Shown here piece after piece: positions 18,763-63,715 of a stretch of 64,000 nt of DNA. A program made the position numbers and the translations under genes. Within the stretch, counting starts at the first letter, position 1, and the number at the start of each line of letters is the position of its first letter. The stretch comes from Schmidtea polychroa (lineage: Eukaryota). The stretch is taken from NCBI GenBank assembly GCA_044892525.1, contig CM097885.1:207762001-207826000 (forward strand), given 5' to 3'. The notes beneath the pieces are model-generated. The model saw only the letters and a program-made list of their open reading frames with translations, was not told the DNA's origin and did no database searches.

Positions 18763-20108
18763 ATAAATATTGATATCAATAACTTGTATGGTTGGGCCTT
18801 AAGCCAAAAGCTTCCGTATGATGACTTTGAATGGGGGTATGATGATCTTAATCCTGTCATAAATGAATATATGAACGAGGATATTGAAAATCTTCCATAT
18901 GGGTATACTATGGAAGTGGATATCAATATCAATCAGTGTGTGCATGAGTTTTTTAATGATTTTCCGATTGCTCCGGAAAAGATGTGTCCTCCAGATTCGA
19001 AAGTTGAGAAGCTGATGCTCACGCAGTGGCCGAAGAAGAACCATGTTCTTCATTGGAGGCTTCTCAAGTTGTATATAGAATTGGGGGCTATTATTAAAAA
19101 TGTACATAGGGCAATTAAATTTAAGCATGCACCCATTTTTAAATCGTACATAGACAAAAACACTAATTTGCGAGCCAATCCTACATGTGAATTATATAGA
19201 GATCTGTATAAATTATTTAACAATAGTCTGTATGGAAAATTCGTGGAAAACCTTAAAAAACGGATGAATTTGAGGCTATGCAATTCAACTGAAAAGAAGA
19301 TTGTATATGCTTCAAAACCTACTTTCAGAAAATCTATCAAAATTGATGATTATCTGATTGCGGCTCATCTGGATAAAGATTCTATATGTTTAGACAGGCC
19401 TAGCTACATTGGTCAAACAGTGTTTGATTTGTCTAAACTACGGATGTACCGGCTTCAGTATATCGAATTGGCTAAATATCGTTTAGAGTTTAACTGCGAT
19501 ATAAATATTGTTGCCAGTGACACTGACTCCTTTTTTCTTGAGGTTAGGTACTGTAAGCTTGACACTCTTTTACTGGCAATGATTCGTGACAATCTTTTAG
19601 ATACTAGCAACTATGACCCAACACATCCCTTATACTCGAGAAACCTAGATTCTGTGATAGGGAAGTTTAAAGATGAAAGTAAAGGTCTCGGGTATAAGGA
19701 GTGGGTTTTCTTAAGACCCAAGTGTTATAGTTTGTTAGGGACCAAAGATAATTTAAAAGCAAAGGGAGTCAAATTGATAGGGAGTGAAATTGGGCACCAG
19801 TCATATTTAGACTGCTACAACAACAGCGTAGTATATACGGTCACACAAACTAGAATAGGTACAAGAAATCACCAGATTCTTACGTTTAAAAATACCAAGA
19901 TTGCATTGTCAAACAACGAAGACAAACTATTATGGGTGGGTTAAATTCCAGTCTCGCATTTGGGCATTATTTAGGAATAGATGTCTTAGATGTTGATCAA
20001 GTAATTTCAGAAATTCGTCCATTATTAGGAGGATTAAGTCCAGATTTCAATGATGATGCCAATGATGCCAATGATATTGGTATAGATGACGTATTGTTAT
20101 CGAATTGA
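18763..20108 (+). pseudogene. polB: Protein-primed family B DNA polymerase, C-terminal part (Polinton/Maverick/adintovirus type)
   Basis: DINNLYGWALSQKLP (motif A), YKLFNNSLYGKF (motif B), ASDTDS (motif C), GKFKDE, LRPKCYS, KAKGV. No exonuclease half; the C-terminal SLAFGHY is frameshifted after 19944. Confidence 0.9.
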
Positions 20109-20990
20109 TCTGTGATTTAATATATCTTTAAAGACACTAATTTAAAATATCTTTTCATAATAAATTTATATAAATACCAGTAAAATTATATTGAGGGGGG
20201 AGGAAAAAAAGATCGTAGATTAGAAAAATCAAAAGGAGAAGTTAAAATTAGATTGGGAAAAATTTCTAGTTGTTATCTCATTGGATAAATTTCTGTTTAG
20301 TGAACATTCTGTATTCATTTTATTGATCGGAAGAAAAAGAAATTTACGAATCTTGTGGAAATTTAATATCACGACACTATAAACAAGCTCCAATATTCAT
20401 TGGAGTATTTGAGAAGAGAACAAAAGAAGAAAACAATTAGGATTCGTTTTGACAACCCATCTGTGGTTTCGTCTATCTACTTGAAGGAATTAAACAAAAA
20501 AAAATTAAATTAGTTAGTATTTATTGTTTTTTCATATCTAAATAAATATAAATATATAAATTTATTCCGTCACATAAAACGATTTTAACAAGGGAAACAG
20601 TAACGTCAGCACGTATCTTTTTGTGTTGTCTCGTTACGAATATAATTTAAAAAAGGATTAACCGATTTCTGGGTTGACTCTATCGCGTTAAAATTAGGTA
20701 AACTCCTTTATCTCTTTTCCGCTCACCTATATCGGGCTGTTGGCGCATTTAGGGCCAGCCTTGATTCTTAGTAATACTCTTTAGGGCGGTTTCTATAACC
20801 GTTTTCTGTTCTTTAGAAAGCAGCGTGATTAATTGTGTAATATAAACAATTGTGTAACAAATTATTTATTGTTAATAAATATTTAAATCATATTCGTTAT
20901 TTTATTTACCTACACGCGTTATAAATTATTTTGAGTCAGATAAAACGTTTTTGTGTTAGTTCGAATACATACCCATCGAACCTAACATTT

Positions 20991-21008
20991 TGGTGAGCCC
21001 GACGTGAT
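20991..21008 (+). promoter_or_regulatory. Primer-binding site, tRNA-Trp
   Basis: TGGTGAGCCCGACGTGAT differs by one base from the complement of the metazoan tRNA-Trp 3' end (TGGTGACCCCGACGTGAT); 3 nt after ...AACA. Confidence 0.85.
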
Positions 21009-21086
21009 AAAATTATCAGCGGGTAGAAATCGAAAGAAAACAAAATAGCGTTAGGAACTAGAGCCAGAGTAAAACTGGATAATCAA

Positions 21087-22223
21087 ATGGCAGAGGAAGC
21101 TAATGTAAATGCATTTGCCAGATATCCCGCTCTGTCCGTAAAGGCATTCAGCGGTGATCCGGGAGAATTCCCAGAGTTTATGTCTGAATATTATCAGATG
21201 GCCAAAGCATATGCTTATCCAGATAATATCATGATACAAAGGCTACCCATATATTTGAAGGGGCTGGCAAGAGAAAAATATAATGACATAATAGCATTAC
21301 CAGTTGCTCAAGCACCGAAAACATGGGCCGAAATGAGAGAACAAATGACTGCTCGAATATTGCCCGGAGATGCGGGAAGAATATTTAGACAACAATTTTA
21401 TCATCGAAAACAAAATGCCAATGAACCTTTTGGGGAATTTGCACACCAGCTATCATTAATTGCCGAAAGAGCATTTGGTCCAAAAACCACATGGGCAAAG
21501 CCAACAGAATTGTTAGTTAAGGGTCAGCTATGGGCAGGACTTACTCCTACAATGAGGAACGCTCTAATATTACATACTAGTGATGATTTCGACGAATTGA
21601 CCCGGAAAGCAGTCGTAATTGAAAGCAGTTTGGAAAAGTCAACTATGTTCCTTGTAAACAGTGAGAGAACACCGGTAGAGTGTTTCAATTGCTATAGAAA
21701 AGGGAATATAGCGAAAGATTGTACCAGCAGGAAAATTATGGACAATCGCAAAAGTATACAATGTACCAAATGTGGACGGAATAACCACGGTGCGGAAAAC
21801 TGTAGAGTACAGAATTTGCAATGCGAAAAATGTAAACGAAAGGGACATGTTGCTGCAGTCTGCAAGACTAGAAGCTTTCAGAACAGCAATAATTTTAGTA
21901 CGGTTAAAAGAGATGATGTAAATTCATCAGGAAAGATAAAATGTCACGGATGTGAGAAATTCGGACATATGATGAGGTCATGTCCTCAGAATCAGAGTGG
22001 AAACACGGGTCAGTTCAATAAAAATACCGATAAGGGTAATGGAAACAAGCCTAAGACGACTTTTATGGTTAACCAGGATCAAGGGTTAACTTATCTGCAA
22101 CAACTGGAAATGGAAATCCAGGAAGAAAAGAATAGGTTGGCTAGATTGACCGACCAAGAAGGCACCATCTTTATGGTAGAAGTTGGAAGAGATGAATTTC
22201 TCAGAAAAAAAGGACTCCATTAG
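21087..22223 (+). CDS. gag: Element A Gag (capsid + four CCHC-type Zn knuckles)
   Basis: FSGDPGEFPEF...RLPIYLKGLA...RKQNANEPFGEFAHQL; knuckles CFNC..GN...DC (His lost), CTKC...H...NC, CEKC...H...VC, CHGC...H...SC. Confidence 0.93.
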   Translation: MAEEANVNAFARYPALSVKAFSGDPGEFPEFMSEYYQMAKAYAYPDNIMIQRLPIYLKGLAREKYNDIIALPVAQAPKTWAEMREQMTARILPGDAGRIFRQQFYHRKQNANEPFGEFAHQLSLIAERAFGPKTTWAKPTELLVKGQLWAGLTPTMRNALILHTSDDFDELTRKAVVIESSLEKSTMFLVNSERTPVECFNCYRKGNIAKDCTSRKIMDNRKSIQCTKCGRNNHGAENCRVQNLQCEKCKRKGHVAAVCKTRSFQNSNNFSTVKRDDVNSSGKIKCHGCEKFGHMMRSCPQNQSGNTGQFNKNTDKGNGNKPKTTFMVNQDQGLTYLQQLEMEIQEEKNRLARLTDQEGTIFMVEVGRDEFLRKKGLH

Positions 22224-25200
22224 AGAGGGCCTTCAGGAATCAGAGGATTTCCAAGATGCCCAACTCAATATAAAACTCCCACAGGATAAAGAATATAATC
22301 TCGATATAAACGTGAGAAGTCGAGCCGATAAATTAACGGAAACATTGACAAGTATTAAGCATCAAGGATATGACTTATACTTATGTGGGATAAAATTAGA
22401 GGCAAACCAAACACTTCTACAGAACGGGATACTCCCAGGTAGAGTGACGAAGCTCACAGCAAAGAGAGCACCAAAGCCAGTGGCAGTAATGGATCAAGAT
22501 AGCGTATTCTTGATTACTCAAATGGAAATAGAAAGATTGGAGGAAACTCAACAATTAACCCAGCGACTATGGTTAGAACTGCAGAAATTACCACGGGATG
22601 GACAAACTATAAAGGAAATACTTGACTGGATGTTAGTATTACGAATACCAGTAGATTTGTGGGAAGCAATAATTCCACTTATACTACCAGTGGTAAAGGA
22701 AACAAGCCCATTCCAGACGCAAATCGAGGCACTGATGAGGAAAAATGGGAAAGCTATTCGAGGTCAGCCTCATAGACAAGGCAACATTAATCTAGACATG
22801 CGAATGATGGGAAAAGAACCATTAACAATGATTTATAATTGTTATATCAAGGTTAAAATATTAAGGATAGATGTGATTGCCACCGATCAAACTACAGGTA
22901 TATTCCTGATAATGGTCCACGGTAGGCAAGTGGATGATGATGAATATCTAGTGGATGTGGGTTGTCTACCGTTGGCGATAACCACGGTAATGATCATCCC
23001 AGTAACTCCACCAGAGTCCCAGTGGTCATTAATGAGACTGCCAGATATAGCAAACGAAATTGCGGAAGAGATCGAGGAAATAAGGCTAGAGGAAATTAAT
23101 CCCTGTCAAATGGTTGACATCGACGAGGAAGATTACTTCTCAGAGTACGTCAGATTAAACCCAGGAGAAACAAACGTAGGAGCTACTACGTCACAAGCGG
23201 TAACAAATCCGGAGACTGAAAAACCCCCGGAGAAAGTGAAAAAAGATGGACGAGGACGTCCTAGAAAGGATCAAATGAAACCTCCACCCAAGGAGCAGTT
23301 AAATCCGGAAACGATTCGGAAAATTCAGCTAAAAACATTAGCAGGGATAGCTCAAGAAATGGACGACCAGGCGGAAGATGAAACAACGCCAGAGAGGTCG
23401 TTATTGTGGCAACGTATACAACAAATGATCGGGATCATCAGGCCCGAATGGAGAATTCCAAAAATCAAGGGTATCGAAGTGAAAAAGATAATGAAGGAGG
23501 TCAAGAAGACAATGGATAGAGTATCCAAGTACGTATCGACAGGAGATATCCAGGAGGCCATAGAAGCATTCGTACAGCAAGGATTAACAAGAGGGAAAGT
23601 GGTAACATCGCTATCATTGTTAATTCAACAGGCCTTAGCCCGAGTAGGGGACGATAAAAGGCTTATAGAACGAGAAATCGATCAAATAGTCGAAATGGTA
23701 GATTATTACATGGAGGCATGGATGACCGTAAACAAATTTTGGGAAAAGGAAATGATCCCAAAACCAAGATACGAAGCCGTGGAAGAAGCCATAAATAATG
23801 GTAGTTCAGGCACAGGAAACATGACAAGCATGATCCTGATGTTCCTAGTAATGATGGGTATACTAAAACAAACAAATTCACTAACAGTATTCGACTGTGG
23901 AAATCCTAAACTATCTCGGATATATTCGCTAGTAGATGCAATTGAGTGCAAAGAGGCGTATCCAGAGAAGGTTCATCAAGGGGAAAAGGTAGAATATTAC
24001 GTCTACCAAGAGAGTGAATTTTATAGAACCACGATAAAGGAATGTAGAGTTCAGAGAGCTACATTCGAATATTATTGCGGTACTAATAGCTATTCTGCTT
24101 TTCTATCCGCAACATTAATACCAAGGCAGGTAAACATAATGCCCGAAGATTGCTTAGATGCATTTGTGAGGATAGACAACGAGGTATCAATCTCAGCAGA
24201 AATTTGGAAAACATTGGGAATAACAATCACTCGAGGAGGAACAATTGCCTCAGATGGAACCTGCGAAGGTAAAAAGAAAATTCGCGGTAGCAATTTAGTT
24301 TCCTATGTGGTAGACATAGAAGATTACTCAGTGGAATTACGAGAATACGAGGGAACATTCGATGTGGCCACAGGAAAATTGATGGCACATCCGCAATGCA
24401 ATGCCAAGTTCGGTAGTTGTAAAACGGGAACCACCACATTAATTTACGAACAAATGAGAGATCATTGTGAGTTGGCTTTCCTCAAGAAAATTCCTTTTAG
24501 AAAATTAAATGGAACTAAATATCGGGACTCCCAGAATCCAGAAAAGGTTTGGGATAAAGCAAAAACGTTGAAGAAAATCAACAAACAAGAGAAGGAAGAT
24601 ATCGGGGAGGAAAACACACTTTTAATGCTGATATCGGAAGACAAGACGGAAGCAATTCGATTTGTCCGAAAGGATAGAAAAACTAAATGTGGGAAAAGAG
24701 TATACGAGACGAACTACAAAGGAATTCTCCTGTCAAGAGAATATATTCGGAATTCCAAGATCCTACATGTAAAGGATATCAAAATCACGAATTATATAAA
24801 TAATAAAGTAGATTATTTATATCATGATTTGCAAGGGCAAATGCAAGATATGTATCAAGAGGTGATACTAAACGATTGCAAGCTAAATCGTGAAATAGTC
24901 CGAAATAGATTAGCAATATCTATCGTTAACCCAGAGTTGATTACTCCAATGTTATTGGAAGATGGAATGTTTGGTAGAATCATGGGAGAAGCTATATATA
25001 GCTATGAGTGTAAACTAGTGGAAGTACAATTAGCCAGATTTAATCAATGCACTCTAGAACTGCCAGTGTCTTACCAAGGAAAATTGAGATTTGTTATGCC
25101 AGTAACCAGAAAGTTACTTAAGGAAAACACTAAACCTCAACCAGCTATATGCAACCCGGCAATATCACCATTATACAAAATAAATGACATGTGGATATCT

Positions 25201-28200
25201 CTGCCGGAAAGAAAACCATCTACACAACGGGTAGACATCTTGGAGGTAACTAAATAAGAGGATAATCTGGAATTCAAGTCACTAGACGAATTAGCAAAAG
25301 GAGGGATCTATACTCCCGACGATATCGAGGAAGCAAGAAGGACATTGCTATTCCCACAAATCAGAGACAGAGGTATCACGGAAATTATAAGAACAATTTA
25401 TCATGATAGCTTAATACGACCAGATTACAATCTATTATTTGGACCGGAACACTATAAAGAAGCAGCAAAGAACGTAATGATGAAAATATGGGGACGATTT
25501 ACCAATTTTGGTATTTTTGTCGCTGGATGTTCAGGAATTTACGCAATATTTGTAATTTTAAAGCTGATAATTACACAACTGATGTCAAAATATAGCATAT
25601 TCAAAATTGGAGGATGGTCATGGAAACTGCTATTAGGACTATGTCCTATGTGTGCAGAGTTTGCATTATTCAAACATCACAGAAAAGAAATTAAAGAAAT
25701 TAGACAGAAACATTTGGTCAAACATGAAGTAATTGGAACAGAAATGGAGGAGTATTCGAGTTATCGGGACGATAACAATTCAAAGGGAGGATGTAATGGA
25801 GGCTCTCGTGGAACATCTTCAAGATCAAATCAATCACGAAAACAGAACTACAACAAAAAACCGATTCTGCAACAAAGAAAATCGAGATTTAAGGAATATC
25901 TCCCTCCATATGACCAATCAAAGGAAATTTACGTGAAAAGACAGTCCTCAGAAGGAGAATATGACAGTTCCGACCAAAAATTCGACAAAAGGTCACCCAG
26001 ATTCAAGAGAAGTCCAAGATATGTACAATTGCCAACTTTGAGGAGTTTACCATCCGCACCAAACGAGGGGCGGGAACATTCAAGGGAAACAACACTCAGA
26101 ACAGGACGACACCAATGGAAAATCGGTGAAGATATCATATTTAATAATCTGACATGTTCAACATTGCCAGAATTACCTAAAGTGCACTATCCAAAGGAAG
26201 CGTTAGAGTCAATTAAAGCTAAATTTAAAGAATATAATCCTCAACTGAGTGATCCCGAATTACTGGAAGCAGAACAAACGAGAGCCAATACAATCAGTAT
26301 CTCGCACGATACTATCTTGATGGTCAATAACCCAGTGAATTTGGATAAAAAGCCAATGATAAAAATAAGAGTGAACCGACATACAGTTAATGCGGAGATA
26401 GACTCAGGAGCAAATGGTACCATAATTGAAGCTAAATTGTTAAACCATCATGAACTGCAGTCGCTAAAACCGGCAGGAGTAAAATTAACAGGAGCAAACG
26501 GATCCTCATTAAACGTAATAGGGTCATTATCCTGCCAGATTAAGCTATGTGACCAGGAGCTCCATCACGACATCATAGTGATGAGAAGTCTCCCAGCCGA
26601 ATGTCTATTGGATATGGACATCCTAAAAAGACTACGAGGAGTAGTATTCGATTGTGCATCTGGATTGTTAATCCGACCACGAGGTAAAAAGAGAAAAATT
26701 TACAACGATGATACAGCTTATATAGATCATACAACTGTTATACCACCCAGAGCGGAAACAGTATGTTTTGTAGCTACAAGCAATAATTGGGAAGGTGAAA
26801 TTGTATACGAACCAGACGAAATATTTTCGGAGAAATACAACATACCAGTTACTCATAGCGTAGGTTTAATAGTCAATGGCAGAATACCAATCAGGGTAGC
26901 CAATCTGGACATTAAACCACTTTACTTATATCCAGATACCAGAGTTGGCAAAATCTGGAAACAAAACGAACCACAAGCCACGGGAGAAGGGTCGATACTT
27001 ACCATAAAGGCAGAAGAAAGAGATCCAGATATTGAGTACTACGATGCACCTACAGCAAATAGCAAAGTGCTAACCAGAAAAGAAAACATTCAAGTAAATA
27101 TGCTATTGAGGAAATACGACCAGGTATTCCCAAAACATGAATACGATCTGGGAAAAACAAACCTGTTAGAACATGAGATTGTTCTCACCAATACAAAACC
27201 TATAAAGCTGAGACCATACCGTATTCCATTCAGTCTGGAGGAATCAGTAGAAAAACAGGTGAAATTGATGTTAAAACATGGCATAATCAGGCATAGTAAA
27301 TCACCATATCAATCGCCAATGATAGTAGTGGCCAAGAAGGATGGATCAGTACGATTATGTAATGACTATCGCATGGTTAACGAAGCAACATGCAAAGATA
27401 GCCATCCATTGCCATTGTTAGATTATATCTATGGACGCATGAGAGACGCTAGGTTCTTCTCAGTAATGGACGCCCAAAAGGGATTTTATCAAATTAAGTT
27501 AAAAGACGAGACTATACCAATAACAGCGTTCTCTAAGAGTATGGGTCATTACGAATATAACGTAATGCCATTTGGACTCACAAGAGCTCCAGCCACATTT
27601 CAAAGAGCAATGAATTTGATGCTCATGGATGTACATCATGCGATGGTATACATTGACGACGTCATAGTATTCTCGCCAAATTTGGAAAAACACTTGGAAC
27701 ATTTGGAAGATGTATTCAAGAGGTTGATCAACGCAAACATGAAAGTGAAACCAACCAAATGTAAATGGGCTGAACCAGAAGTGGTATATGTTGGCCATAT
27801 CATATCAAGAGACGGGGTTAAACCCGATCCAGCAAATGTTGAAAAGGTAAAGAATTTCCAGGAGCCTAAAACCGTTAAACATATCAAAGGGTTCTTAGGC
27901 CTAGTTGGATACTATAGGAAATTCATTAGAAACTTCTCGGTTATAGCTTTTCCACTCACGCAGTTAGAAGGCAAAAATGTCAAATTTGTGTAGAGAACAG
28001 AACAGCAAGAAGCATTTGATATGCTCAAGGAAAAACTCGTCAAGCCACCTATATTGCGATTTCCAGACTTTGAGAGACAATTTTTGGTTATGACAGATGC
28101 CAGCACTCGGGGCATAGGTGCTGTGCTAGGTCAAAGAGATGCAATTGCATACGCTAGCAGAGGATTAAAACCACACGAGAGAAACTACGCAGTGATAGAA

Positions 28201-30807
28201 CTAGAGGCTTTAGCAATTGTGTATGCTATAACCCAGTTTAGAACTTATCTTTGGGATCGAAAGATCATAGTGTACACCGATCATAGACCATTACAGTGGC
28301 TGACAAAACACACAATGGATACATCAAAACTAGTCAGATGGGCACTAATTTTACAGCCATAGGACATAGAAATCCATTACAGAAAAGGAGATCACAATGG
28401 TAATGCAGATGCTTTATCAAGAATGGACCAGGAAGAAGAAGCAGAAGATGTGAAGGAAGGACGTCTCGAAGGGACTATCTTCACACTATCTCGAGAAGCC
28501 AACCGGCTAGCTGATTTAATGAAGGCACAAAAATCTGACGAAGAAATCAATGTTATTCGTCAAGCCTTGGAAGCAAAATACGTGCACACAGAATTCACGA
28601 AATACTGGGAAAAGAATAAAGACAAATTTGTGCTGGAAGAGGGATTAGTTAAATATTCAGATGTAAGAGATAACGTTATAATGGTTCCTAAGAAATACCG
28701 TGAAGCACTCATGTTGCAGTATCACGATGGAGCCTTAGGAGGCCACATGTCATCTAGAAAAACATTGTCGAGGCTAAAACAGAAATATTTTTGGCCAGGT
28801 ATGAAACAAGACGTTAAAACCTGGTGTCAGACATGTAAGATCTGTATCACCAGAAGAAATACCGGAAAGAAACCACACGTACCAATGAAGCCGATGCCAG
28901 TACCATCTACACGTATGGAAATGACGACAATGGACGTGTTGGGGCCATTCAAAGAATCTAATAGCGGAAACAAGTACATATTAGTTTTCTGCGACTACTT
29001 GACTAAGTGGCCAGAGGCCTACCCGATGCCTAATCACAAAGCTGATACAATAGCTAGAATTTTCGTTGAACAAATTGTCTTTAGGTATGGAGTGCCTACA
29101 AAGTTATTAACGGATCGGGGAGCAGATTTCATGAGTAATTTGCTCAAAGGAATAAATGATTATTTCGGAGTTTTAAAGTTGAATACTTCCCCATATCACC
29201 CACAGACGGATGGGCTAGTAGAACGATTTAATGGAACATTAGCTAATATGTTAGCATCATATGTAAATTCAGGGCAAACGGACTGTGATATCCACATTCC
29301 ATCCTGTTTATTTGCATACAGAAATGCAGTGCACGAAGGAACAGGTGAAACACCATTTTACCTAATGTATCTAAGGCAAAGTAAAATGCCGGTAGATCTG
29401 TTGTTTTTCCCTAAAGCCACACGGTACTTGGATCAGGAAAATTATCTGATGGAAATGAGGGAAAGAATGCAGGAAGCATGGGCTAGAGCAGGTCTCAGTA
29501 TAAAATATAATCAGGAAGCATCAAAAGATTATCACGACCGAAAAGCCAAGGATCATGGCATATTGGTTGGAGACCAGGTGATGTTAGAAAGTCATTATAA
29601 CAAGAAAGGCTTATCACCAAAACTCATGCGAAATTTCAAAGGGCCATATGAGGTATTGAGAACCACAGATACAAATCTCATATTACAACTTGTAGCCAAC
29701 AGAAAAGCAGAACCAATAATGGTGCATGCTAATCGGTGTAAAAAGTGCGAAATCTCAACAAAAGGAACCTCTGGAAATTCAAAAGTAAAAGCACCAGAGA
29801 AGCAAGTGAAACCAAATACTACCGAAGAACCACAAGAACACCGATACCCATTGAGATCACGGGGTGTTCCAAAATCGGTAACCTTTTTGTTGATAATAAG
29901 CTGTATGATGACTTTGGTGATGGCAAAAAGGGATAAAAAGGCATATTTTCAGCCTATGGCAATGCAAGTGGAACATTTACATTTTATAAGAACGTATCAC
30001 GGAATTAGCATACTCACAACGTGCGATAATGCTAAAAAATTCAATTTACATTTCTATAACAAGTACCTGCGGATCCGCCAACTCAATTCAGAAGAAAAAG
30101 AGTGGGAATTATATGATTTAAAAGCAGAGACGGATTATAAACTGCATATCGCAGCATCAAGGTTATATCAGAGCGGTTGGTATACCTATCAGGTATCAAA
30201 TTGGATCCTAAGGACGGCGGATTTCACAAATCGCATATCGATATCCTACGAAAAAGATAAAGTGAAGTTTAGTCAACAAATTAGCAGGGAGGAGAAGGTG
30301 AAAGTCAGTATTCTAGACGGACCAACCACGAGAGAAACATTATGGCTATACCAGAACTCTCCCTCCCAAGAAATGTATCTAAATCAGTCCGTAGAATATT
30401 CGGTTCTAGTTATATACTATAGTCCGAGGAAACGGCAGGACGATAGGTGGTTCGAGGTATTCGAGGAGATATTACCTCTTAAACAGCCAGTTATAACGAA
30501 GATACCACCAAAAGTAGTCAGGGAGAACATGGTGATACATCCCGCGATATGGCAACATCTTAGACAGTTGCCACCTATCAAACAAATATCTTGCCAATAG
30601 ACCCCAAACCTGACAAACTGTTGTGATTGTAATGCCATCACGAACTTTAATGCAGGATACATTCTGAAAATACCCATAAGGGTATGGATTACGGTATCGG
30701 CCGTACTATCGCTAATAACTACACTGATAGCTATCAGTATTTGGACCAAGCTATATTTTAGACAAGCCATAAGGGCTTACGATGGAGTACTGATGTCGCA
30801 ATTATGA
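22183..30807 (+). pseudogene. pol: Element A polyprotein: 2x Ubl, AT-hook, Bcl-2-like, signal, class III-type glycoprotein, TM, protease, RT, RNase H, integrase, signal, FN3-like, TM
   Basis: One reading frame broken only by stops at 25255, 27991, 28360 and 30598. Motifs: GRGRPRK; LTVFDCG...YCG...DGTCEG...GEAIYSYEC; IDSGA (26401); YIDD (27649); TDAS; HDG..GGH/C..C; MDVLG; TDRG; ERFN; DLKAETDYKL. Confidence 0.9.
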
Positions 30808-31005
30808 CAATTACAGACTCCCCCGAGGGAAAAATCATATATAAATATTTATATATATCTTAAAATCTATATTTACGTAGAGCTCCAGGTAGCATTAAAA
30901 TTCAGCATATGTAGATCTTTTATAATAAGACTCATGCATATCTTTTTAGCCTATTATGGCATATCAGTATATCTGATATTATGGTTAATGATTTTTATTT
31001 CAGGA

Positions 31006-31353
31006 ATGCAGAGCCATCCAATATCCCAATACCAAGGAAGACATAGCATTATACGTGCTACGACCTTGCTAAAGGAAAAACTTATTTATAAAAACCTGGA
31101 GAAGCAGGTAATGGAGCAAAGCAGAAAAGGACAAAGGCACTGGTTTTACGGACATTGCTCAGGCATACCCAATAATTTCAAATTTGACGAGGCCCCAAAG
31201 CATCAAATGATTATTTCAAGAATCCCGGGCAAGCATAACGGCAGTATTAGGCTTACCGAGGTCATGTCTGAGTTTGGCAGACATAGTCTGACCAACCACC
31301 TGTGGATACACGCCATTAACAAACCATTTACGGTTTATGTTGTACTAGCATAG
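31006..31353 (+). CDS. Element A accessory ORF of unknown function
   Basis: The ATG at 31006 follows a TTTTTATTTCAG acceptor; the ORF track begins at an upstream ATG (30934). No recognisable domain. Confidence 0.5.
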   Translation: MQSHPISQYQGRHSIIRATTLLKEKLIYKNLEKQVMEQSRKGQRHWFYGHCSGIPNNFKFDEAPKHQMIISRIPGKHNGSIRLTEVMSEFGRHSLTNHLWIHAINKPFTVYVVLA

Positions 31354-31722: not shown

Positions 31723-32480
31723 TAGAGGGTGTCACCCGGGAATTTAAAAAAAATTAATTCCCCGTTATCAACACATAAAACTACTATAATAGATTTTAGT
31801 ATTTTTATCTCAATACAATATTTCTAAATATATATTTATAAATATACAATTTTATTAAAAAATCTACTTTAGAATAAATTCTACTAATTATATGTTAGCA
31901 TCATTACGAAAAAATCATAATTAACAAGCAACGGATACGTATTGTAAATGTTTATATATTTATTATTATTCCATATTTCAATTTGTAAAAAATTTTCTTT
32001 AAAACTTTAAATAACAGTTTTTCTGTTATTTTATTTGTAGATCAAAATAAATATAAAATATTCCCGATGGCGGATTCTGTGTGGAAATATTTTACAAAAG
32101 AAAAAGGTGGCGAAAGAGCAAAATGTTTGAAATGTCCAAATAAATGGTTAAGTTGCAAAGGATCCTTAACTATTGGTTTAAAAAGACATTTGCAACATGT
32201 TCATAAAATTAATCTGTTGAAACGAGATTCAGTTGACGATCAAGATGCTGGTTCAAGCAACGTAGGAAAACTTTCAACAATATCTAAGAACCAACCTCAC
32301 AGAATATCATTCTTTACTAGAAAGCAATCAATGGCAAAATTGTGGCACGACTTGCGGTTATTGATGTATTTTCAATCCATGGAATTTGCAAAAACGAATT
32401 TATTCGCCAATCACTTAATGATCGGCAATATATTGTTGGGGTTCAATAGGAGCCAAGATAAGGAAATAATGATAAATTAA
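31723..32480 (+). mobile_element. 5' fragment of a hAT transposon with BED zinc finger
   Basis: TIR-like start TAGAGGGTGTCACCC; ORF 32067 reads SVWKYF....AKCLKC....CKGSLTIGLKRHLQHVH (BED finger), then frameshifts and truncates. No right TIR seen. Confidence 0.8.
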
Positions 32481-34229: not shown

Positions 34230-36416
34230 GTAAGCAGCAAATTCACTATAATCAATGTTAAAATCAAACCAATTATAGGTACCCGACAATCAGGAAAACC
34301 AAACCATACTCAGACAACTATTAGGGACAGTTTTATAGACTACTCATTCATATAACCGATTGGATCAGTTTATATTTCGGCTCAGCCTTTGGAACTACAG
34401 AATTTTTCAAATAATAAAGTAAGGATGTATTGCTATTATGAAATTTGTTTTTGAAGGATTTAAATATTTCTATTATATTAACCTAACTTTTGAATAAAAA
34501 CTTCTCCATTCGGTTTCGATCTTTTAACGATTTTATGGTTCATAAATTAATTTACAGGTCAATGATATATAAATATTTATGTTATGTTTTGTCATCAAAC
34601 GTATTGATTATGCTAAAATTATTTGTTTTGAGAAACGTGGAGTTGAGGAGACCCACGCCATGGTATGAGGAGCCTTCGGGAGCTCAGCCGGCGGGTGTGG
34701 ATCTCTTCAATCACGCAGCTGACGTGGGCCGGAATGTGGGGGCTTCCTCACGGGTCCGTCGCTGAGGGAAATAAAATGCTGCAAGCACGAGTTTAAAGTG
34801 TAGAGGAATATATTCCAATATTGAAAAGTAGAGCAAATCTGAATTGAAAATGACTGAGGTGGCTACAAACTCTTCCAAGTATGAGAATCTCATTTTCTTA
34901 GGTACTATACTTTGAAATTTTCGTCTAACATCATGAATTAGTCTCGATCGACTATTCACTTCCATGATACTCTATCATCTTGCGATAAATCCCCTTTTCG
35001 TCAAAATTCATGTCAATTTTCATCTTAACTGATAGAACCCAAGAGCTAATACATTCACTCTGATGTTATGCAGTAGTATAGGAAGTATATATGGAAGATC
35101 ACTGAACGCTTTTATTTACTAAAAAGATATTTGGAGGAGTACGTTATTGTTTTTATCAAAAGCGCCTTAACTCTTTCTGAAATCCCCAATAGCCGTAATC
35201 TGAAGTCCGTTCAGTAAAAGACCCTCTGGCCTCATAACACAGTAAACATACAAGGAGAATTTACAAAAGTATTTAATTAAAAAGATAAAATTTCGTAAAA
35301 AATTCTTTATTTTCATTAAAAAAAAAATATAATTCTGAGTTACCAGTAGTAGGAGCATAATAATCATTTCGGGAAGTTACCCCTGATAGATGTCGCTAAG
35401 ATGAGGAAGGGCTTGAGCGAGTTGATAAAATCTCCACCGGACAGGATATTCTGATGTAAAGCGAGAGAGGCAGTATAATAAAAAATTTTTTCCAAATTTT
35501 CGTGTTTGCTGAGAACTAAACAGTAGATTCATATCGGAGCTGAATGATTAAATTCCAAAAATCGATGTAATCCAAGTTCGGCAGTATAGATAAAATATGA
35601 ACATGTACAGTGAGAAGGTATAGTCTGTCTGTAAGTATGCAGTGAATGAGATTGAGCAATCACCTGCAGGTAGAATCACATGTACAATAGCGAACAATTG
35701 CATATGGCTTAGTCGATGTGATACTCATGCTGCCGGTACGGTAGCAGTGAATTCACAATTTAATCATCGATAATGAGAAAGTCGAATCCCATTGCACACA
35801 CATGGTGAACACCAACTTTTCTGAGAGATCTGAACACTAAGCCAGTTAACGAGGAGGCATGCAACAGATGGTTTGCATCATACGTGTCATACAACTAGAA
35901 TAGAAATTAGACTAGTCTAACTTATCAGCAGTGTGATTGATCAAACAGAGCAAAGTCCATTTGACTGTAAAGTTTTTGTAATCGCACGCATTTACAATTA
36001 ACTCAAATTAGAGTATTATAATCACGAATAAACTCAAATCTTTTAATTAATTTATTATCCCGATGTATTGCACCTGTCTGAATTGTTTTGCTGATAGTAA
36101 AGTCGAATCTGGTCACGCTCATGTATTGACAAGTTTTCTTAATCCGCAATAAAATTATCATGTTGGGCAAAAAGGGGGGGGGAGAATTAATTTGTTAACC
36201 CGTAAACCTATAATTACTTTACGGATGTAATATCAATCAACAGGAAGTTTCGCTAACAGTCATTCCGTTTTCTTCTTGTCGGTCATTTCAACCCATGAAT
36301 GTAATGTAGGGAATTTATGAGCCTTAATAAATAATTACGCTACTCTGATGGATTAGTAGAGCTAGCCAATTTTCGTCTTATCTCTATTATTCTTTCTTCA
36401 TTATAGCTATCAAAAG

Positions 36417-37160
36417 ATGTTGCCAAGCACGAAATCGCCCATCAAACCCTGCTTCTCCTGCTCGGACAAAAATACCGTAATCCGAGAATTACAGGCCCAG
36501 ATCGGTCGATATAAAAAGAAGATCGACGATCTGGAAGGTACATGGTTTAGCCCAGTACAAATGAAGGAAGTTCAAAAGAAATTGTACCGCAGTGAGCATT
36601 GTCGCGATGCTTTGATAAGCGAAAGTAGAGCTCAGCGTAGCCTAATCAAAGAGCAGTCCGAAGCTCTACATAAAGTTTACGTTCAAGCCGCTACAACCCG
36701 AAGGATTGTTAGTATTCCGATTAAAGAAGCGGACAATGTCTTCCCCGTTCACCATGAACCTTCAGTTAGTTCGCCACCCTTGTCGAAAAGATCTTGTCAG
36801 GAATGTGTGGAGGCCGACCTCTCCCCCAGGCCATCGGACGTACCTACTACCGGCACTGGCAAGGTATTGCATTCAGCCACGACGTCCTCGGCAATCTTGT
36901 CTGCCAACCCCTCAAAACCTAAGCGCCGCCAATTGTCCAGAGCGGAGCGTAAGAAGCGCCAACGTGAACGAGCAATGGTCAAACAACGAGAACTATCTGC
37001 CAACCACCTAAGTGCTTCGAATGATCCACCCGTAACGATCGATCTGACCGTAGGAATCCCAGGGCGAATCATATCTGCCGCTGGTGTGACTTGGGAGGAG
37101 AATGCCTCCGAGTTTTTTGATCTAGATGAGCTATTGGCGGATGCGGGGTGGGAGAAGTGA
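36417..37160 (+). CDS. LTR-encoded 247-aa protein (coiled coil, basic NLS-like patch, acidic tail)
   Basis: Intact ATG-TGA ORF that is more GC-rich than its surroundings; polypyrimidine-TATAG acceptor 10 nt upstream; AATAAA at 37291. Confidence 0.75.
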   Translation: MLPSTKSPIKPCFSCSDKNTVIRELQAQIGRYKKKIDDLEGTWFSPVQMKEVQKKLYRSEHCRDALISESRAQRSLIKEQSEALHKVYVQAATTRRIVSIPIKEADNVFPVHHEPSVSSPPLSKRSCQECVEADLSPRPSDVPTTGTGKVLHSATTSSAILSANPSKPKRRQLSRAERKKRQRERAMVKQRELSANHLSASNDPPVTIDLTVGIPGRIISAAGVTWEENASEFFDLDELLADAGWEK

Positions 37161-37756: not shown

Positions 37757-38011
37757 ATTATGGAATTTCTGTCGAATAATGTGAATTCACCGGGATTATC
37801 GATTTCAATTAGTGGGCGAATTAAATTGACTAATGCCTATCGAATCTTATCATAAATCACGATTAGAAAATAATAGAATTAAAGATATAAATAAAGTAAA
37901 TAATAGGGAAATAGAATAAAAACAAAATAAATTATAACGAATTAAAAGAAAATGTTTGATGAAATAACCATTAATTAGCTGTATATTATTTTTTTTTCTT
38001 TCTCAATAGAC

Positions 38012-38497
38012 ATGACGGAATTCGCAGAACAGATGCAACAATTAATTAATTTCATTAATATAGAAAACGACCCTATTAAAACACTCATACAAAAAGGAAA
38101 GCGAATCAACAGCATTTTACTCCAAGCAATCGGACATACACCAGTCGTACCTAACCACGTGTTATTGGCCGCAGGTTTAAGCCACTCAGATGAAAAGATA
38201 AATCACGAAACAGTATACCAATGGTACCTAAAACGACTAAAAAACCCGGCCCTAAATCTAGAATACGAGCGAATAAAAGATCAACTACATACAATATCAG
38301 AGGCAATCGAACAAAAGATACAAGAGAAACTCACCAAATTGCGAACCTGTCTGTCTTGCAATCTTCGCCCTATACGCATACTATTTTTACCTTGTGGACA
38401 CCTCAGTCATTGTGAAGAGTGCGTGAAAGATCTGAAACGATGTGCAATATGTAAAAATGGGATAAAAGAAACCCATATGGTTTATTACGGTGATTAA
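38012..38497 (+). CDS. IAP-type C-terminal RING finger protein without BIR domain
   Basis: RTCLSCNLRPIRILFLPCGHLSHCEECVKDLKRCAICKNGIKETHMVYY at the extreme C-terminus after a coiled segment, as in cIAP/XIAP; strong acceptor upstream, AATAAA downstream. Confidence 0.9.
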   Translation: MTEFAEQMQQLINFINIENDPIKTLIQKGKRINSILLQAIGHTPVVPNHVLLAAGLSHSDEKINHETVYQWYLKRLKNPALNLEYERIKDQLHTISEAIEQKIQEKLTKLRTCLSCNLRPIRILFLPCGHLSHCEECVKDLKRCAICKNGIKETHMVYYGD

Positions 38498-39057
38498 AAC
38501 GACTAACCAGATGCAGTGATGTATATGCGCACTAAATTGTTAAAAGACCTTTGAATACGAATATATGTACTTTTAAGTGTGAAATAACTTTAATGTTTAA
38601 TTTTAGTCTCAGAATAAATAAAAATTTTTTGTTGTTATGAATTAGATATTTTATCTCTTTTAATTATATCTTTGGTTATGAGATCGAATGGAGAAGAATA
38701 AAACTAACGTGGAATTAGTCCCAATATAGGCTGCAGGGGTACAAACCGAGCCACCTTCGGGCGGTACGTTTTATTGCAAGAACCCGTTGGGAGGGGATAA
38801 CTGATCAACCCAAGTAAGAAGCGTAGGGCGGGGTACCATCGCATATGATGAGAAGTTTCTACGACATGACTGATCACCATGCCAATGTAGAAATGGATCA
38901 TCGCGATCGTCGTGCGTTTTGAGCAAGGGGGGAAAGGGGAAACACTCTCAAGCGGTAAAGATTAAGTCGACAAATTAAAAGTAGACAGAGAAAATGGTAA
39001 TCTTGAGTAAAAGAGGAAAAGAGAAGTAGAAGCATGCAGAGTGAGGAATATTAAAGC

Positions 39058-39579
39058 TGAGCTGTTGAATAGTCCAGCCGGTCAAGGAAAATGAAAACTG
39101 AGCTGTGAAAAGTCCAGCCAGTTCGGAGATATTAAGATCGAGTTGTTGAATAGTCCAACCGATCAGAAGGAAGAAGATTGAGCTGTTGAATAGTGCCAGC
39201 CAGTCGTAAGATCGAGTTGTTGAATAGTCCAACCGATCAGAAGGAAGAAGATTGAGCTGTTGAATAGTGCCAGCCAGTCGTAAGATCGAGTTGTTGAATA
39301 GTCCAACCGATCAGAAGGAAGAAGATTGAGCTGTTGAATAGTGCCAGCCAGTCGTAAGATCGAGTTGTTGAATAGTCCAACCGATCAGAAGGAAGAAGAT
39401 TGAGCTGTTGAATAGTGCCAGCCAGTCGTAAGATCGAGTTGTTGAATAGTCCAACCGATCAGAAGGAAGAAGATTGAGCTGTTGAATAGTGCCAGCCAGA
39501 CGTAAGATCGAGTTGTTGAATAGTCCAACCGATCAGAAGGAAGAAGATTGAGCTGTTGAATAGTGCCAGCCAGTCGTAA
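39058..39579. repeat. 74-bp tandem array (6 copies) plus degenerate upstream units, in the leader of element B
   Basis: GAGTTGTTGAATAGTCC recurs at 39140, 39214, 39288, 39362, 39436 and 39510. Each unit has two sub-repeats sharing GAG(C/T)TGTTGAATAGT. Confidence 0.97.
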
Positions 39580-40947
39580 AGGCCTAGAAAAATGAGAAAT
39601 AGCAGTTAAGCTACAATGAGATAATATTTACAATTAATAGAGAAAGGGAATATTAAAGCTAGCTAGAAACAAATTGAATATAATTACGAAAATTTGAGTT
39701 TAGAGAGGAAATAAACGAGCTCGGGGAAAAGATAATAAAATTATAATGAAAAAGGAAGGAGAAGAAGAAAATGAATTAAAGAAATAATGAGAAAATAAAG
39801 AATAGGTGAAATGGAGATAATGAGTAGAAGAAGAAAGTAACTAGCTAATTAAAGGGATCCCAGTGAAGTAGAGAAACTCTACTGAATTTTTTTTTTGGGT
39901 AAACCGGGAAAATGTATTTTTATCGGTTCCAGAGTAGAACCGAGTGGGATAATAGTAAATATGAAAAGTAAAACAGCGACAACAGCGCAAAGGAATAAGA
40001 AAACGAAGGGGGGTAATAAGCAGAGACCGACAACGACCTATTTTTACTATAATTGATAACGAATAGATAATTATTACGACTTTATAGATAATTGTTACTA
40101 CCCCATATAGATAATTTAAAATCGACGGAAAATACGGGCTGATGGGAAATTATAACCCGCAGAAAGGATTTCACAAAAGATAGGGGAAGCACAAACAGAA
40201 ACCTAAAAGGTGTCTGTTTTTGAATGTTGTAGAAAGAATGATGAAGTCGTGTAAGCAAATGCAACACGAGATCATTTTTTCATTTTAGATATCAAGCCAA
40301 TCCAGTCAACCAAGACAATCCAGAACCTGCACAAAAGGAATTCGAAGAAATCGACAATCAACCAAGGATAAATCCATTCAGAACCCGCACCGAGAGACAC
40401 AGCAACCGGAAGACTCCAGAACGGAAGAAGATACAGATAGCGACATCTCCAACTTCGAACGAATCATCGATATATTCAACCTCATAGTATTAGCAGCCAT
40501 CTGCCAAGGATTAGTAAATCTCCTCAGGATCTCAGTAGCAGATTCATACAGAATATTTATCGAAGGAAACACAATCAGAACCGAACTCGTCCAATTCAAT
40601 AGCCGCTAATTACCAAGAAGCGTAAGAAAGGAATCACGGATAAACCCAATCTTAGATCTTCAAGTAAGCCAGGAGACGTATTATTTTCAGGAGACGAATT
40701 ACAACAACTCAAAAGAGGACGATCTATTAAACATCAAAGAGGAATATCACAAGGAGCAAGAAGAACCAATCAAGTACCCATATTTGACCAAGAAAATCTC
40801 GGATATACCCCTAGTCGATCTCGAAGTAGAGAAAGTCTGTCCGATATCACTAATAGTTTAGCAACGTCAACCGAGGAATTATCAGCCCAAAGTTTAGTCA
40901 CATCGTTAGACAATTTAAAAGAAACAGACGAACCTAGAACACCAATC

Positions 40948-43152: not shown

Positions 43153-46100
43153 AGAAAAACAACCAGCCAACCTTTACGATTGGGCTAAAGATGCCAAGGC
43201 AGAATATGATTTTAATATCAAATTGAAATTAGAACAAATAAAACAATGTACTCTGAGACGAAACCTGGATAAGCTGATCAAACAAATTCAAGAACAAGTA
43301 GAAGACAACTGGGATTTACTCATCACCAGACGAGCCCCAGCCATGTACGAACTAATGAGCCGGTTGCGAGATACAGAAATGCTCCGAATGAGTGATTGGA
43401 GAACCATAAATTTGATCCACAAATATGGAAGGTTAAAAGAAACCCAGCCACAGAGGTTGGAAATAACCATATGGTTACCGAACGAAGAGAAACGACGAAT
43501 AAAAATGAGCAATCAGAGTACAGTAGATGACTTGGTATCAAAAATAAACCAAGAGATAACGGAAAAGGTACGTAGCGAAAGTAGTGATGGTATGGTGGAT
43601 GATGTAGTCATGATGTACGATAAAATAATATTACGAGCGGAGGACGACACCTCGTTAAGCGAAATGGGTATGTGGGACAATCATCAGATAATCAGGATAG
43701 TACCAATGGATGAATTCCGAACAAGAGATGTAACCTATCAAAAAGAAATACGAGACCGGATGAAAACGTTATATCAAAAATCTACAGAAATAATTGAAAT
43801 CCACCAACAATGGTTAAAAGAAAAAGAGCTACAAGGAAAAATCACGAAATTAAATACCAGATCCTGCAGACGAACCCCATGGGAAAGAGTGTGGAATGCA
43901 GAAAATAAGGAATGGGAAATCCGGAAAGGGATCTTCGTAGAAACAGACATTGGTGAGACAGAAAGTGAATCGGAGGAAGAAGAAGAGGAATTTCCAGAAT
44001 ATGAAGAGGAAGCAAGGGAACAGACATCAGATGACGAAGGCGAGACGGATGTCACATCAGAAAGCGAAAATGAAGCGAGACATATTCATGCAATGAGGAA
44101 AAAGGAACGTGAATATGCTGATATGGACGGCGAGGAAGCAATAGAAGCAAGAGAGCGAGAAGAGAAAGAAAGATATAAACAATTAGGCGATATTTTAGCA
44201 ATGGGAGCGAAAAATCAAAAACGCCAGGTAGTAGCGTTGGCTAATATCATCTTAAAAACATCAGAGAATATCCACAATCTGAGAGGAATGGCAAAGGCAA
44301 TAGAGGAATACCGGCAATATAATGAATGGTATCCAGAACAGCTAGAACAAATTATTCGAAAATGGAGAAATCAGGAATGGGCACAAGACACTCAGGAGAG
44401 GTATCACATCCGAATCAAGTATCCGGACAAGAGCATCGAGGAACTAGAGGTACATCCAACAACAAAAATTAGAGAATTAAAAAAGAAATTAGCATATGAA
44501 ACTCCATTCCATCTGCAACTATTCGGAAAATCACTAGACGATAATGCAGACGTCGGGATAACACCCATGAGATTGGAAGAGACAAATGTATTAACAATGG
44601 CAGAAACGTTGGGGAAACCGTTAAAAAGGAAAAGTAAAATTACTAAACCAACAAAAGGCAGTTTGAGTACTCCAAGTCCGAACAAAGCACCAAGTAAATC
44701 TAATGAAACTGAAGAAGTTGAAGAGATCATCCTGGAAGATAGTGACGATGAACCAGGAGAAAGATCACCGCTATTAGTGAGATGGCCGACAGGAGCCGAA
44801 ATGTGGACTAATAACCAGCCATCAACGAGTTATCAACAACCAACGAAACTGAACATCAAAGAAATCATCGACAATACTACGGAAACCGAAACGGATGAAC
44901 AATTCCAGAAGCAAAGAGAACCAACGAAAGTAACACCAGAAGGTCAAACCGATAAAATAATAGACGAATGGAATGAGTGGCTAAGAAATAGCGATAGCTC
45001 ATTACCCAGAACGGATAACGAAAGAAACCCGAATTACGAAAATACCAGAGAAGCCGGAACGATGATGGAAAAACGGGCAAAAGGAAGACCTAAGAAACAA
45101 GGAGAAAAATCTGAGTTCAAAACCAAAGAACAATTAAAGCAAGAACAAGGGCAAGTTCGATTAGAAAAATTGGATAAAATAGTATGGGATCTAAAGGAAG
45201 CCCAACCAACGACCGAAAGAGGAGAAAAATGGATACGAGAATTGATCAAAGATATGTTAATAATAACAAACCCACAACTTAGACGTTCGTGGCAACGGAA
45301 AGTAGCCAGCACGGAAGCTAGACAATTATGGCACACCATTTCGGGGATAATCCCAAAGTTAATCAAAGAGAAAACGAAAACCACCAAAACGGATTGGGAC
45401 GAAACAAAGAGAGTGATTGAGCAGCTCACGACAAATGCAAATGATGACGAACATCATCTAGTGGTAATCACGTATTTGATGTATAATTTGATGGGACTAG
45501 CTGCGAGGAAAATACCAAATAAACAGTTTGCAAATCATGTGGAAATGACCGTTTCGATCATAGAGAATACTATTGAACCACATATTATTCGTGCAGGAGG
45601 ATGGAAAAGACTGATACAAGCGCCACGAAAAAATGAGCAAGAAAGGTCGATGCAAGTTAGATTGAAAAAACTGTTAAATGAACTAGAATGGGAACTACCG
45701 ATGAAAGATCTCGCAAGCAGAAAAGCATCAATAAATTCGTTAATGATGACTATGATGATATGGATGTTGTGCACCAGTGGAGCAACGGGTTTTACCATCT
45801 ACGATTGTGATAATATGATAATGAGAGATAAATACTCATTGAGAAACATAGAAGAATGCAGACAAGCCTCACCCAACAAATTGGACATCGTGAGAACAAA
45901 AGTTACTTACCATGTATATCAAGAATCAGATTTCATCAGAACGCAAGCAAGGGAATGCGTAGTATCAAAAAAGGTACTCGCATATTACTGTGGACAATAT
46001 TCGTATTCGACTCTTATACTACCCGGTCTGGATAAAGAAATCGTATCAATACAACGAGAGGACTGTAAAGAGCTATTTAGAACCGGAGCGCTAAAAATGC

Positions 46101-55321: not shown

Positions 55322-55406
55322 ACCAAACCTAGCTTAAAATGTAAATAATTGTAAATAAAATATCGAACCTGTATCGATAAGAACTATATGTACATATAAT
55401 TATAGA

Positions 55407-62800: not shown

Positions 62801-63715
62801 ACCTCTCCCCCAGGCCATCGGACGTACCTACTACCGGCACTGGCAAGGTATTGCATTCAGCCACGACGTCCTCGGCAATCTTGTCTGCCAACCCCTCAAA
62901 ACCTAAGCGCCGCCAATTGTCCAGAGCGGAGCGTAAGAAGCGCCAACGTGAACGAGCAATGGTCAAACAACGAGAACTATCTGCCAACCACCTAAGTGCT
63001 TCGAATGATCCACCCGTAACGATCGATCTGACCGTAGGAATCCCAGGGCGAATCATATCTGCCGCTGGTGTGACTTGGGAGGAGAATGCCTCCGAGTTTT
63101 TTGATCTAGATGAGCTATTGGCGGATGCGGGGTGGGAGAAGTGATGGCCGCAACACAATGCAACCGTGCAGGGTGCGAATGGACAAATATACTATCTTGA
63201 CTCTTTTTCTTCTTAATCTATTCTCCACCAAGTGTACTTGTTATGTAGTGTATAATTATTTAATGTATCATGATAATAAAATAAAGAAATATTTGGTTAA
63301 ATTTTTGTTGTTGTTTAAATCTAACTAGCTGTGATAAAGGTTCAGCGTAGTGTTCGCAAAGCGAGAGTAAAGTTTGAGTTCGAGAGGCAGTGGTCAATTT
63401 TGTACCGAATAATGGGTCAGGGTAGAGGGAGAATCTGATGAGGTAAACAGACGTAAGTCCTTCCATCGGCCGTCAGAAAAGGGAAGTCGAGGCCTCAGTA
63501 AGGAGTAGTCCTAAGGTAGGGGCTCACCTGCTTACTGGAGTCTCGCCGACATAGCACATTTCCAACGTGAAGCAATTCGCGGGTGCTATGTTGGAGGGCA
63601 AGTTGTGCGGGGTCCTGCTCCGGGTTGACACGGGCGTATGTAGCGTAATGATATGGGCACGCACCCCTAGACAAGGACGTAGATTGAGCAGAGTCAACCA
63701 AGCACTACCCCAGCA
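59855..63715 (+). repeat. Element B 3' LTR (3,861 bp)
   Basis: TGTTGGGCTG...CCCCAGCA followed by TSD CCTC; all internal ORF translations match the 5' LTR apart from one substitution. Confidence 0.97.
62401..63144 (+). CDS. Second copy of the LTR-encoded 247-aa protein
   Basis: Translation identical to 36417-37160. Confidence 0.75.
   Translation: MLPSTKSPIKPCFSCSDKNTVIRELQAQIGRYKKKIDDLEGTWFSPVQMKEVQKKLYRSEHCRDALISESRAQRSLIKEQSEALHKVYVQAATTRRIVSIPIKEADNVFPVHHEPSVSSPPLSKRSCQECVEADLSPRPSDVPTTGTGKVLHSATTSSAILSANPSKPKRRQLSRAERKKRQRERAMVKQRELSANHLSASNDPPVTIDLTVGIPGRIISAAGVTWEENASEFFDLDELLADAGWEK

Follow-up and report, generated by a model that had tools for sequence, protein, structure and literature searches.

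A predicted Bcl-2-fold domain upstream of the envelope signal peptide in planarian gypsy-type retroelements

Does a planarian retroelement carry, within its own polyprotein, a relative of the Bcl-2 regulators of cell death, and what might such a domain do there? The question was raised by a window of 64,000 nucleotides from the AT-rich, 781-Mb genome of Schmidtea polychroa, in which a first-pass annotation had proposed a Bcl-2-like domain at 23326-23760, immediately before a hydrophobic segment.

Element A and its relatives

The window holds two gypsy elements with an envelope, here called A and B. Element A (20587-31341) contains gag, a long ORF (22180-25257), a glycoprotein and PR-RT-RH-IN, all read on the plus strand. 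Its 5' LTR is truncated at the 5' side, leaving a 3' part (20587-20987, placed by blastn to a natural copy) that ends in CA and is followed by a primer-binding-site-like stretch. The gag region (21027-22223; Pfam Retrotrans_gag and zf-CCHC) comprises the capsid and CCHC knuckles. Two probable ubiquitin-like repeats flanking a helical stretch come next (22255-23022), a weak assignment drawn from a BLASTP match to P0005 (E 3e-19), the matching part of which has a Pfam ubiquitin match (E 0.005); the Pfam search of this region in A itself gave no match. After a basic RGRPRK motif (23251-23268), which by alignment is common to A, a sister family A', B (as KGRPKK), a further family C and P0004/P0005, the ORF encodes a helix containing LAGIAQEMD (23305-23367), the predicted Bcl-2-fold domain (23395-23760), an internal signal peptide (23815-23880) and a Monjiviricetes/chuvirus-type fusion glycoprotein (23881-25716; Pfam PF24664, E 1e-50 and 8e-22) with a transmembrane segment near its end by hydropathy. 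Protease, reverse transcriptase, RNase H region and integrase follow in gypsy order (26344-29202; Pfam).

The first-pass annotation had placed the domain in a retroelement polyprotein. This holds for other genomic copies, which are one ORF, and not for the window copy, which is truncated at both ends, lacks about 320 nt with a change of frame near 22240 (a blastn gap against other copies) and carries stops in the glycoprotein (25255-25257) and in the pol region (27991-27993 and 28360-28362). Relics lie around it, namely a type-B DNA polymerase fragment, a BED zinc-finger ORF and a further gypsy pol fragment (18763-19944, 31989-32480, 1-1860).

A natural A copy measures 14.9 kb, with 1.1-kb LTRs that are 99.6% identical and one ORF of 3368 codons; intact copies have a single ORF of 3366-3369 codons, in which env shares the frame of gag and pol and lies between them. 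The family is abundant: among the best 150 of 648 candidates scored, 127 rows have at least 59% identity, some of them pieces of one copy, and another 23 rows at 36-38% identity represent A', which is 15.3 kb long. The domain and signal are free of stops in 15 of the 20 closest loci and contain one stop in three, the remaining two being unmatched by the pattern used. After the integrase, the main ORF of A continues into an unassigned tail, and its end also has a hydrophobic stretch. Both A and A' possess a second ORF of 761-775 codons (L080:686-2968, L082:833-3157), truncated in the window copy (30808-31353); neither gave a Pfam match, the ORF of the natural A copy having 761 codons.

A genome-wide search with Pfam Bcl-2 and the glycoprotein family located the families B, C, D and E, in each of which a helical segment directly precedes the signal peptide. 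Window 23395-23760 is homologous to the segment that immediately precedes the envelope signal peptide in each of the six gypsy families (A, A', B, C, D and E), whose reverse transcriptases are 40-72% identical; the RT tree was built with one outgroup, which places monophyly outside its scope. Between A and A', identity is 36% in the domain, 62% in the glycoprotein and 72% in RT, making the domain the fastest-diverging folded part. Between A' and its subfamily (L060 vs L071), synonymous divergence is 0.14-0.20 in gag and RT but 0.75-1.4 from the linker through the Bcl-2 domain to the glycoprotein, a difference which suggests that recombination has exchanged the Bcl-2/env block as a whole.

Element B (33870-63715) is Burro-1-like and 29.8 kb long, with 3.86-kb LTRs that are 99.9% identical and a 4-bp target duplication. 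Its Bcl-2-like domain and signal peptide (45215-45790, plus strand) are homologous by alignment to those of A and have Pfam Bcl-2 as top match (E 0.033). It also carries TRAF (55359-56795), ankyrin repeats and an ORF with an IAP-type RING (37979-38497), cargo found in B only among the six families. B is a young copy; all 150 scored matches of its family have at least 93% identity, and many have a 4732-codon ORF. Both of its LTRs contain a 264-codon ORF (36366-37160 and 62350-63144) that has no Pfam match, and a 74-nt unit forms a tandem array between the 5' LTR and gag (39045-39650).

Sequence and structural evidence for the fold

Searched on its own, the window domain gave no Bcl-2 match in Pfam (likewise the two A copies tested), no match in the PDB by phmmer and no Bcl-2 match in the ESM Atlas, where family D gave Bcl-2-family leads only, below 0.8; a word-based search for homologues among longer proteins found none. 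The link is made through the other families. Pfam Bcl-2 is the top match for five of the six (E-values of 0.006 for A', 0.033 for B, 9e-7 for C, 0.0045 for D and 2e-5 for E), all of these matches being under the curated cut-off. A four-family profile matched eight of 1.8 billion proteins; five of these eight match Pfam Bcl-2 at E of at most 0.06 and four have the same glycoprotein family. The A-clade profile aligns to that of the other families with an hhalign P of 97.4 (E 1e-11, in an alignment that takes in the signal), and the profile of the other families aligns to host Bcl-2 exons with P 95.6; directly against host Bcl-2, the A-clade profile is weak (P 37, E 4e-4).

When a profile built from the other families, with zero A-clade sequences, was applied to the window domain core, it scored 33.7 bits, a value reached by none of 1000 shuffles (best 9.4). 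A host Bcl-2 profile scored 12.8 bits on the same core, which one shuffle in 1000 reaches. The profile of a 19-row retroelement alignment led to Bcl-xL (E 9e-7), with Bcl-2 family members in all 60 listed PDB matches. To judge by these comparisons, the resemblance across BH1 and BH2 exceeds chance. The best PDB matches of the A-clade profile are BOK at E 0.2 and 0.48, neither significant, and an origin of the domain from Bok was not retained beyond a non-significant lead.

The 19-row alignment, which includes no cellular Bcl-2 sequence, also served as AlphaFold input. The model has a pLDDT of 78-95 per 10-residue block over residues 51-160 and of about 55 for the first 50. Compared by VIA-align with 48,161 chains, it has Bcl-2 folds at all of ranks 1-32, the best being Hydra Bcl-2-4 (Z 12.2, rmsd 2.8, 119 aligned, model residues 49-167) and the second Trichoplax Bcl-2L2 (Z 12.1), while the first unrelated fold has Z 5.8; values of Z under about 13 can be common among helical bundles. 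Foldseek returned Bcl-2-family chains in all 43 rows shown, yet at E of at least 0.009 and rmsd mostly 5-7; against viral models it gave nothing at E of 0.001 or below, and many of the top rows were viral Bcl-2 or E1B-19K proteins. A model from the A clade only had pLDDT 42, with a best Z of 7.5 to unrelated bundles and Bcl-xL at rank 21. The fold call thus rests on the alignment with the other families, since the window domain has no direct match and the A-only model is unusable. On this footing, window 23395-23760 very probably adopts the Bcl-2 fold. The first-pass annotation had asked for AlphaFold and a fold search: the multi-family model is the Bcl-2 helical bundle and not another fold, the A-only model being uninformative. 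Its proposal of a Bcl-2 homologue is upheld by the profile chain, the predicted model and the fold search together. Helix bounds in the model are 23401-23439 for alpha1, 23479-23520 for alpha2 (the BH3 position), 23539-23580 for alpha4, 23590-23646 for alpha5 and 23656-23709 for alpha6, with alpha3 shortened and BH2 extending to 23742.

Three motifs had been put forward, all of which lie in a single plus-strand frame in the claimed order, followed by the hydrophobic segment (23815-23859): LAGIAQEMD, called BH3-like (23338-23364), FVQQGLTRGKVVTSL as BH1 (23569-23613) and YMEAWMTVNKFWE as BH2 (23707-23745). Profile tests and model agree in placing BH1 and BH2 correctly. The BH3 assignment did not survive. 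LAGIAQEMD sits in a low-confidence helix upstream of alpha1, which we place outside the bundle because the structural match begins at residue 49 (window 23395). We rejected the reading of this motif as alpha2, which would separate BH3 from the BH1 Trp position by 84 residues, where host paralogues have 48-57. The motif alone proves little: of 2000 shuffled versions of the ORF, 210 contain a match to a loose BH3 pattern. The BH3 pattern is LxxxGD, and the helix at the BH3 position, onto whose equivalent in family E position 1 of Pfam Bcl-2 falls, has M81-K82 where Gly-Asp is expected. The upstream LAGIAQEMD helix also has no Gly-Asp; it is conserved, with 51% identity between A and A' and a dN/dS of 0.03-0.13.

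The groove positions are altered as well. The window reads TRGK for the canonical NWGR of BH1 and KFW for the GGW of BH2, the canonical forms occurring in the Bcl-xL matches. The BH1 Trp is missing from all 19 retroelement rows and the BH1 Gly is retained in seven (six A/A' rows and P0008). At the BH1 groove positions the A clade has kept Gly and a basic residue (G115 and K116); in its BH2 the Gly-Gly is replaced. Helix 2 and BH1 are 37-45 residues apart in the 17 rows that are complete, about 10 fewer than the 48-57 of four host paralogues. As the missing Trp and the short spacing are common to all families, we infer a single old capture with a remodelled groove.

Selection and the hydrophobic tail

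The domain is under purifying selection, as estimated from substitution ratios. In the domain core, the comparison of A' with its subfamily gives a dN/dS of 0.15 (bootstrap 0.07-0.28), and three independent pairs of A copies give 0.20 (0.12-0.32). RT stands at 0.03 and the glycoprotein at 0.05; A-clade values for the domain are 3-7 times those of RT and glycoprotein. The estimates for B vs B' and D vs E are unreliable (dS 4.1 and 1.7).

In alignment with the PF24664 glycoprotein profile, the hydrophobic stretch falls on the N-terminal positions; its hydrophobic core is followed by a T-N-S end of signal-peptidase type. All 16 rows with a glycoprotein junction have a small residue at -1 (three rows are without a junction), and in 14 of them the residue at -3 is small and neutral. 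Because of the profile alignment and these small residues, the stretch is, on sequence grounds, the glycoprotein's own signal peptide, as the first-pass annotation had it.

The same segment is a candidate membrane anchor. It lies 25 residues past the BH2 Trp, its best 15-residue Kyte-Doolittle value is 2.33, and the linker to the tail spans 42 to 70 residues across rows. The chain preceding an internal signal peptide remains cytosolic, so the Bcl-2 domain would, once signal peptidase has cut, keep the signal as its C-terminal anchor; retention of the spent signal in this role, which the first-pass annotation had suggested, is plausible. In the natural copy, a protease-site-like motif, drawn post hoc from the five places where it occurs, is absent between residue 376 and the glycoprotein; this absence suggests that the product, some 670 residues long, would be membrane-bound.

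Possible roles and relation to known systems

The reading that we favour, tentatively and somewhat short of calling it probable, is that of a membrane-tethered pro-survival decoy directed at host cell-death proteins. The internal signal would enter the ER during translation, signal peptidase would cut after T-N-S and the glycoprotein would pass into the lumen. The upstream chain would stay in the cytosol with the spent signal as its C-terminal anchor, a topology like that of a cellular Bcl-2 protein. A cut by the element's protease at the end of Gag would then yield the product of about 670 residues, consisting of ubiquitin-like repeats, linker, helix, Bcl-2 fold and anchor. Through the remodelled groove, the product would engage Bax/Bak/Bok-type or BH3-bearing proteins of the host, and the expressing cell would be kept alive while the element replicates. 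Consistent with a decoy are the absence of Gly-Asp at the BH3 position, BH3 having been described as needed for pro-death activity (in the part of PMC7022251 consulted), the retention of G115/K116 and the IAP-type RING, TRAF and ankyrin cargo of B. Against it, groove residues are poorly kept across families, the hydrophobic core of the tail is short and possibly removable by intramembrane proteolysis, and the tail is by origin a glycoprotein signal that would enter the ER, not mitochondria. When the domain was modelled in complex with a BH3 peptide of Bax/Bak type from the host, the prediction scored 0.01 with the alignment not used, which speaks neither for nor against binding.

A broader form of this reading would join a single ancient capture to a working viral Bcl-2 with the env signal as tail anchor, the upstream BH3-like helix regulating the groove and planarian stem or germ cells being kept alive during multiplication. 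This combination is speculative and, taken whole, rather doubtful; if true, it would give reverse-transcribing elements their first functional Bcl-2 mimic.

The state of the groove also fits a scaffold that has none and blocks another host pathway, in innate-immune or stress signalling, in the manner of vaccinia A52 and B14, which share the fold, have no groove and do not modulate apoptosis (according to the part of PMC2494871 consulted). The lost BH1 Trp, the shortened helix 3 region, the variable groove residues, the rapid divergence of the domain between A and A' and the TRAF and ankyrin cargo of element B would all suit such a role. The predicted model, however, is nearer to groove-bearing Bcl-2 proteins (Z 10-12) than to A52, N1 and B14 (Z 5.7-6.8), and BH1 and BH2 are still recognisable in the sequence, leaving this a rather unlikely account.

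Location could instead be the point of the domain, as a structural, matrix-like spacer coupling Gag to the membrane and the glycoprotein in particle assembly, with no host target. Its membrane-adjacent position is fixed in the six families and in those outside relatives that show the junction, the other cargo being confined to B, and the single ORF would tie Gag to the membrane through the domain until the protease cuts. A spacer accords poorly with a domain dN/dS so far above those of RT and glycoprotein in the A clade, which is more like that of a host-facing part, and with a linker to the tail that varies in length. We consider it unlikely.

That the domain is a Bok/Bax-like pore former or death trigger aiding exit of particles from the ER or the cell is very improbable. 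The non-significant BOK matches of the A-clade profile, the likeness of BOK BH1 GITWGKVV to GLTRGKVV here and the conserved upstream BH3-like helix would fit it; Gly-Asp is absent both at the BH3 position and in the upstream helix, the all-family profile prefers Bcl-xL, and a killer gene in hundreds of young copies would presumably be costly. Least probable of all is a chance likeness, a generic helical bundle drawn to Bcl-2 by the alignment, for which the missing direct match of the window sequence, the inconclusive A-only model and Z values in the range of ordinary bundles could be cited, but which is countered by the leave-clade-out score, by the identical position in six families, by a sister family A' (38% identical) with Pfam Bcl-2 as its top match, and by the unbroken run of Bcl-2 folds over the whole domain from an alignment free of cellular Bcl-2.

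The first-pass annotation knew of no established case of a Bcl-2-like domain in an LTR gag-pol polyprotein. Such a case was already in print: Burro-2, -3 and -4 have a BCL2-like motif, noted by Grohme et al. 2018, and their region from BCL2 to protease is env, in frame (PMC6431247). Burro, or GYPSM1, comprises giant gypsy-like LTR retrotransposons of planarians (PMC6431247, which also cites Jurka 2007), and the part of that source consulted describes one ORF with Gag, a ubiquitin/SUMO-like motif, the BCL2-like motif, an env related to mononegavirus fusion proteins and PR-RT-RH-IN. Family A shares the LTRs and the gypsy order PR-RT-RH-IN, with a single ORF in natural copies that is broken in the window copy. 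It differs in size, at about 15 kb with 1.1-kb LTRs against over 30 kb with an internal region of up to 25 kb for Burro, and in cargo, there being no Pfam match to TRAF/MATH, BIR or ankyrin in the A ORFs or in the 761-codon second ORF. Set beside the published description of the Burro elements, family A is Burro-related and built on the same plan; because the size and cargo features differ, we file it as Burro-related and not as Burro proper. In the literature searched, we found no structural or functional follow-up of the Burro BCL2-like motif, and the figures or supplements of Grohme et al. 2018 may already cover family A. What is new here is the structural support, the selection evidence and the presence of the domain in a 15-kb family.

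Like cellular Bcl-2 proteins (Bcl-xL, Mcl-1 and BOK, and those of Hydra and Trichoplax), the domain has a predicted bundle around alpha5, BH1 and BH2, and a hydrophobic C-terminal segment. Unlike them, it has no BH3 Gly-Asp and no BH1 Trp, its A-clade BH2 has lost Gly-Gly, its helix 3 region is short, it sits inside a polyprotein and its tail comes from a viral signal peptide. It resembles viral Bcl-2 proteins in being a captured, degenerate fold (Z 9.6-11.2 for canarypox CNP058, MHV-68 M11, ASFV A179L and BHRF1; 5.7-6.8 for the groove-less A52/B14). The viral proteins come from free-standing DNA-virus genes and have tested functions, whereas the present one is a polyprotein domain of a reverse-transcribing element, known from its sequence. 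To our knowledge, the rubella capsid has no Bcl-2 fold. It does offer a parallel for the tail, as an anti-apoptotic viral protein, upstream and cytosolic, that keeps the signal peptide of the downstream glycoprotein as its C-terminal anchor (in the part of PMC3040668 consulted); in element A, such retention is proposed by analogy.

The Burro motif has been listed since 2018-2019, in the literature searched as an annotation only. Domain borders, predicted fold, corrected helix register, groove changes, selection and retention in six families now make it testable, and the smaller families retain the domain without the other cargo. Should the domain suppress cell death, an animal reliant on the turnover of its stem cells would have its apoptosis manipulated by a transposon that numbers hundreds of copies.

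Other Bcl-2-like genes were noted in the same genome. Two are multicopy, one apparently spliced and the other a 152-codon ORF (G000:C1:50162000-50171999, that is L093; L094:5778-6233; L095:5098-5553), and both adjoin TBP-like, ATPase and integrase-like ORFs typical of Polinton/Maverick elements; given these neighbours, two unrelated mobile classes in this genome would carry Bcl-2 folds. A cluster of seven host-type Bcl-2 genes, nearly identical and with BH1 and BH2 in canonical form, lies within 0.9 Mb (G000:C4:89.9-90.8 Mb; L025-L031).
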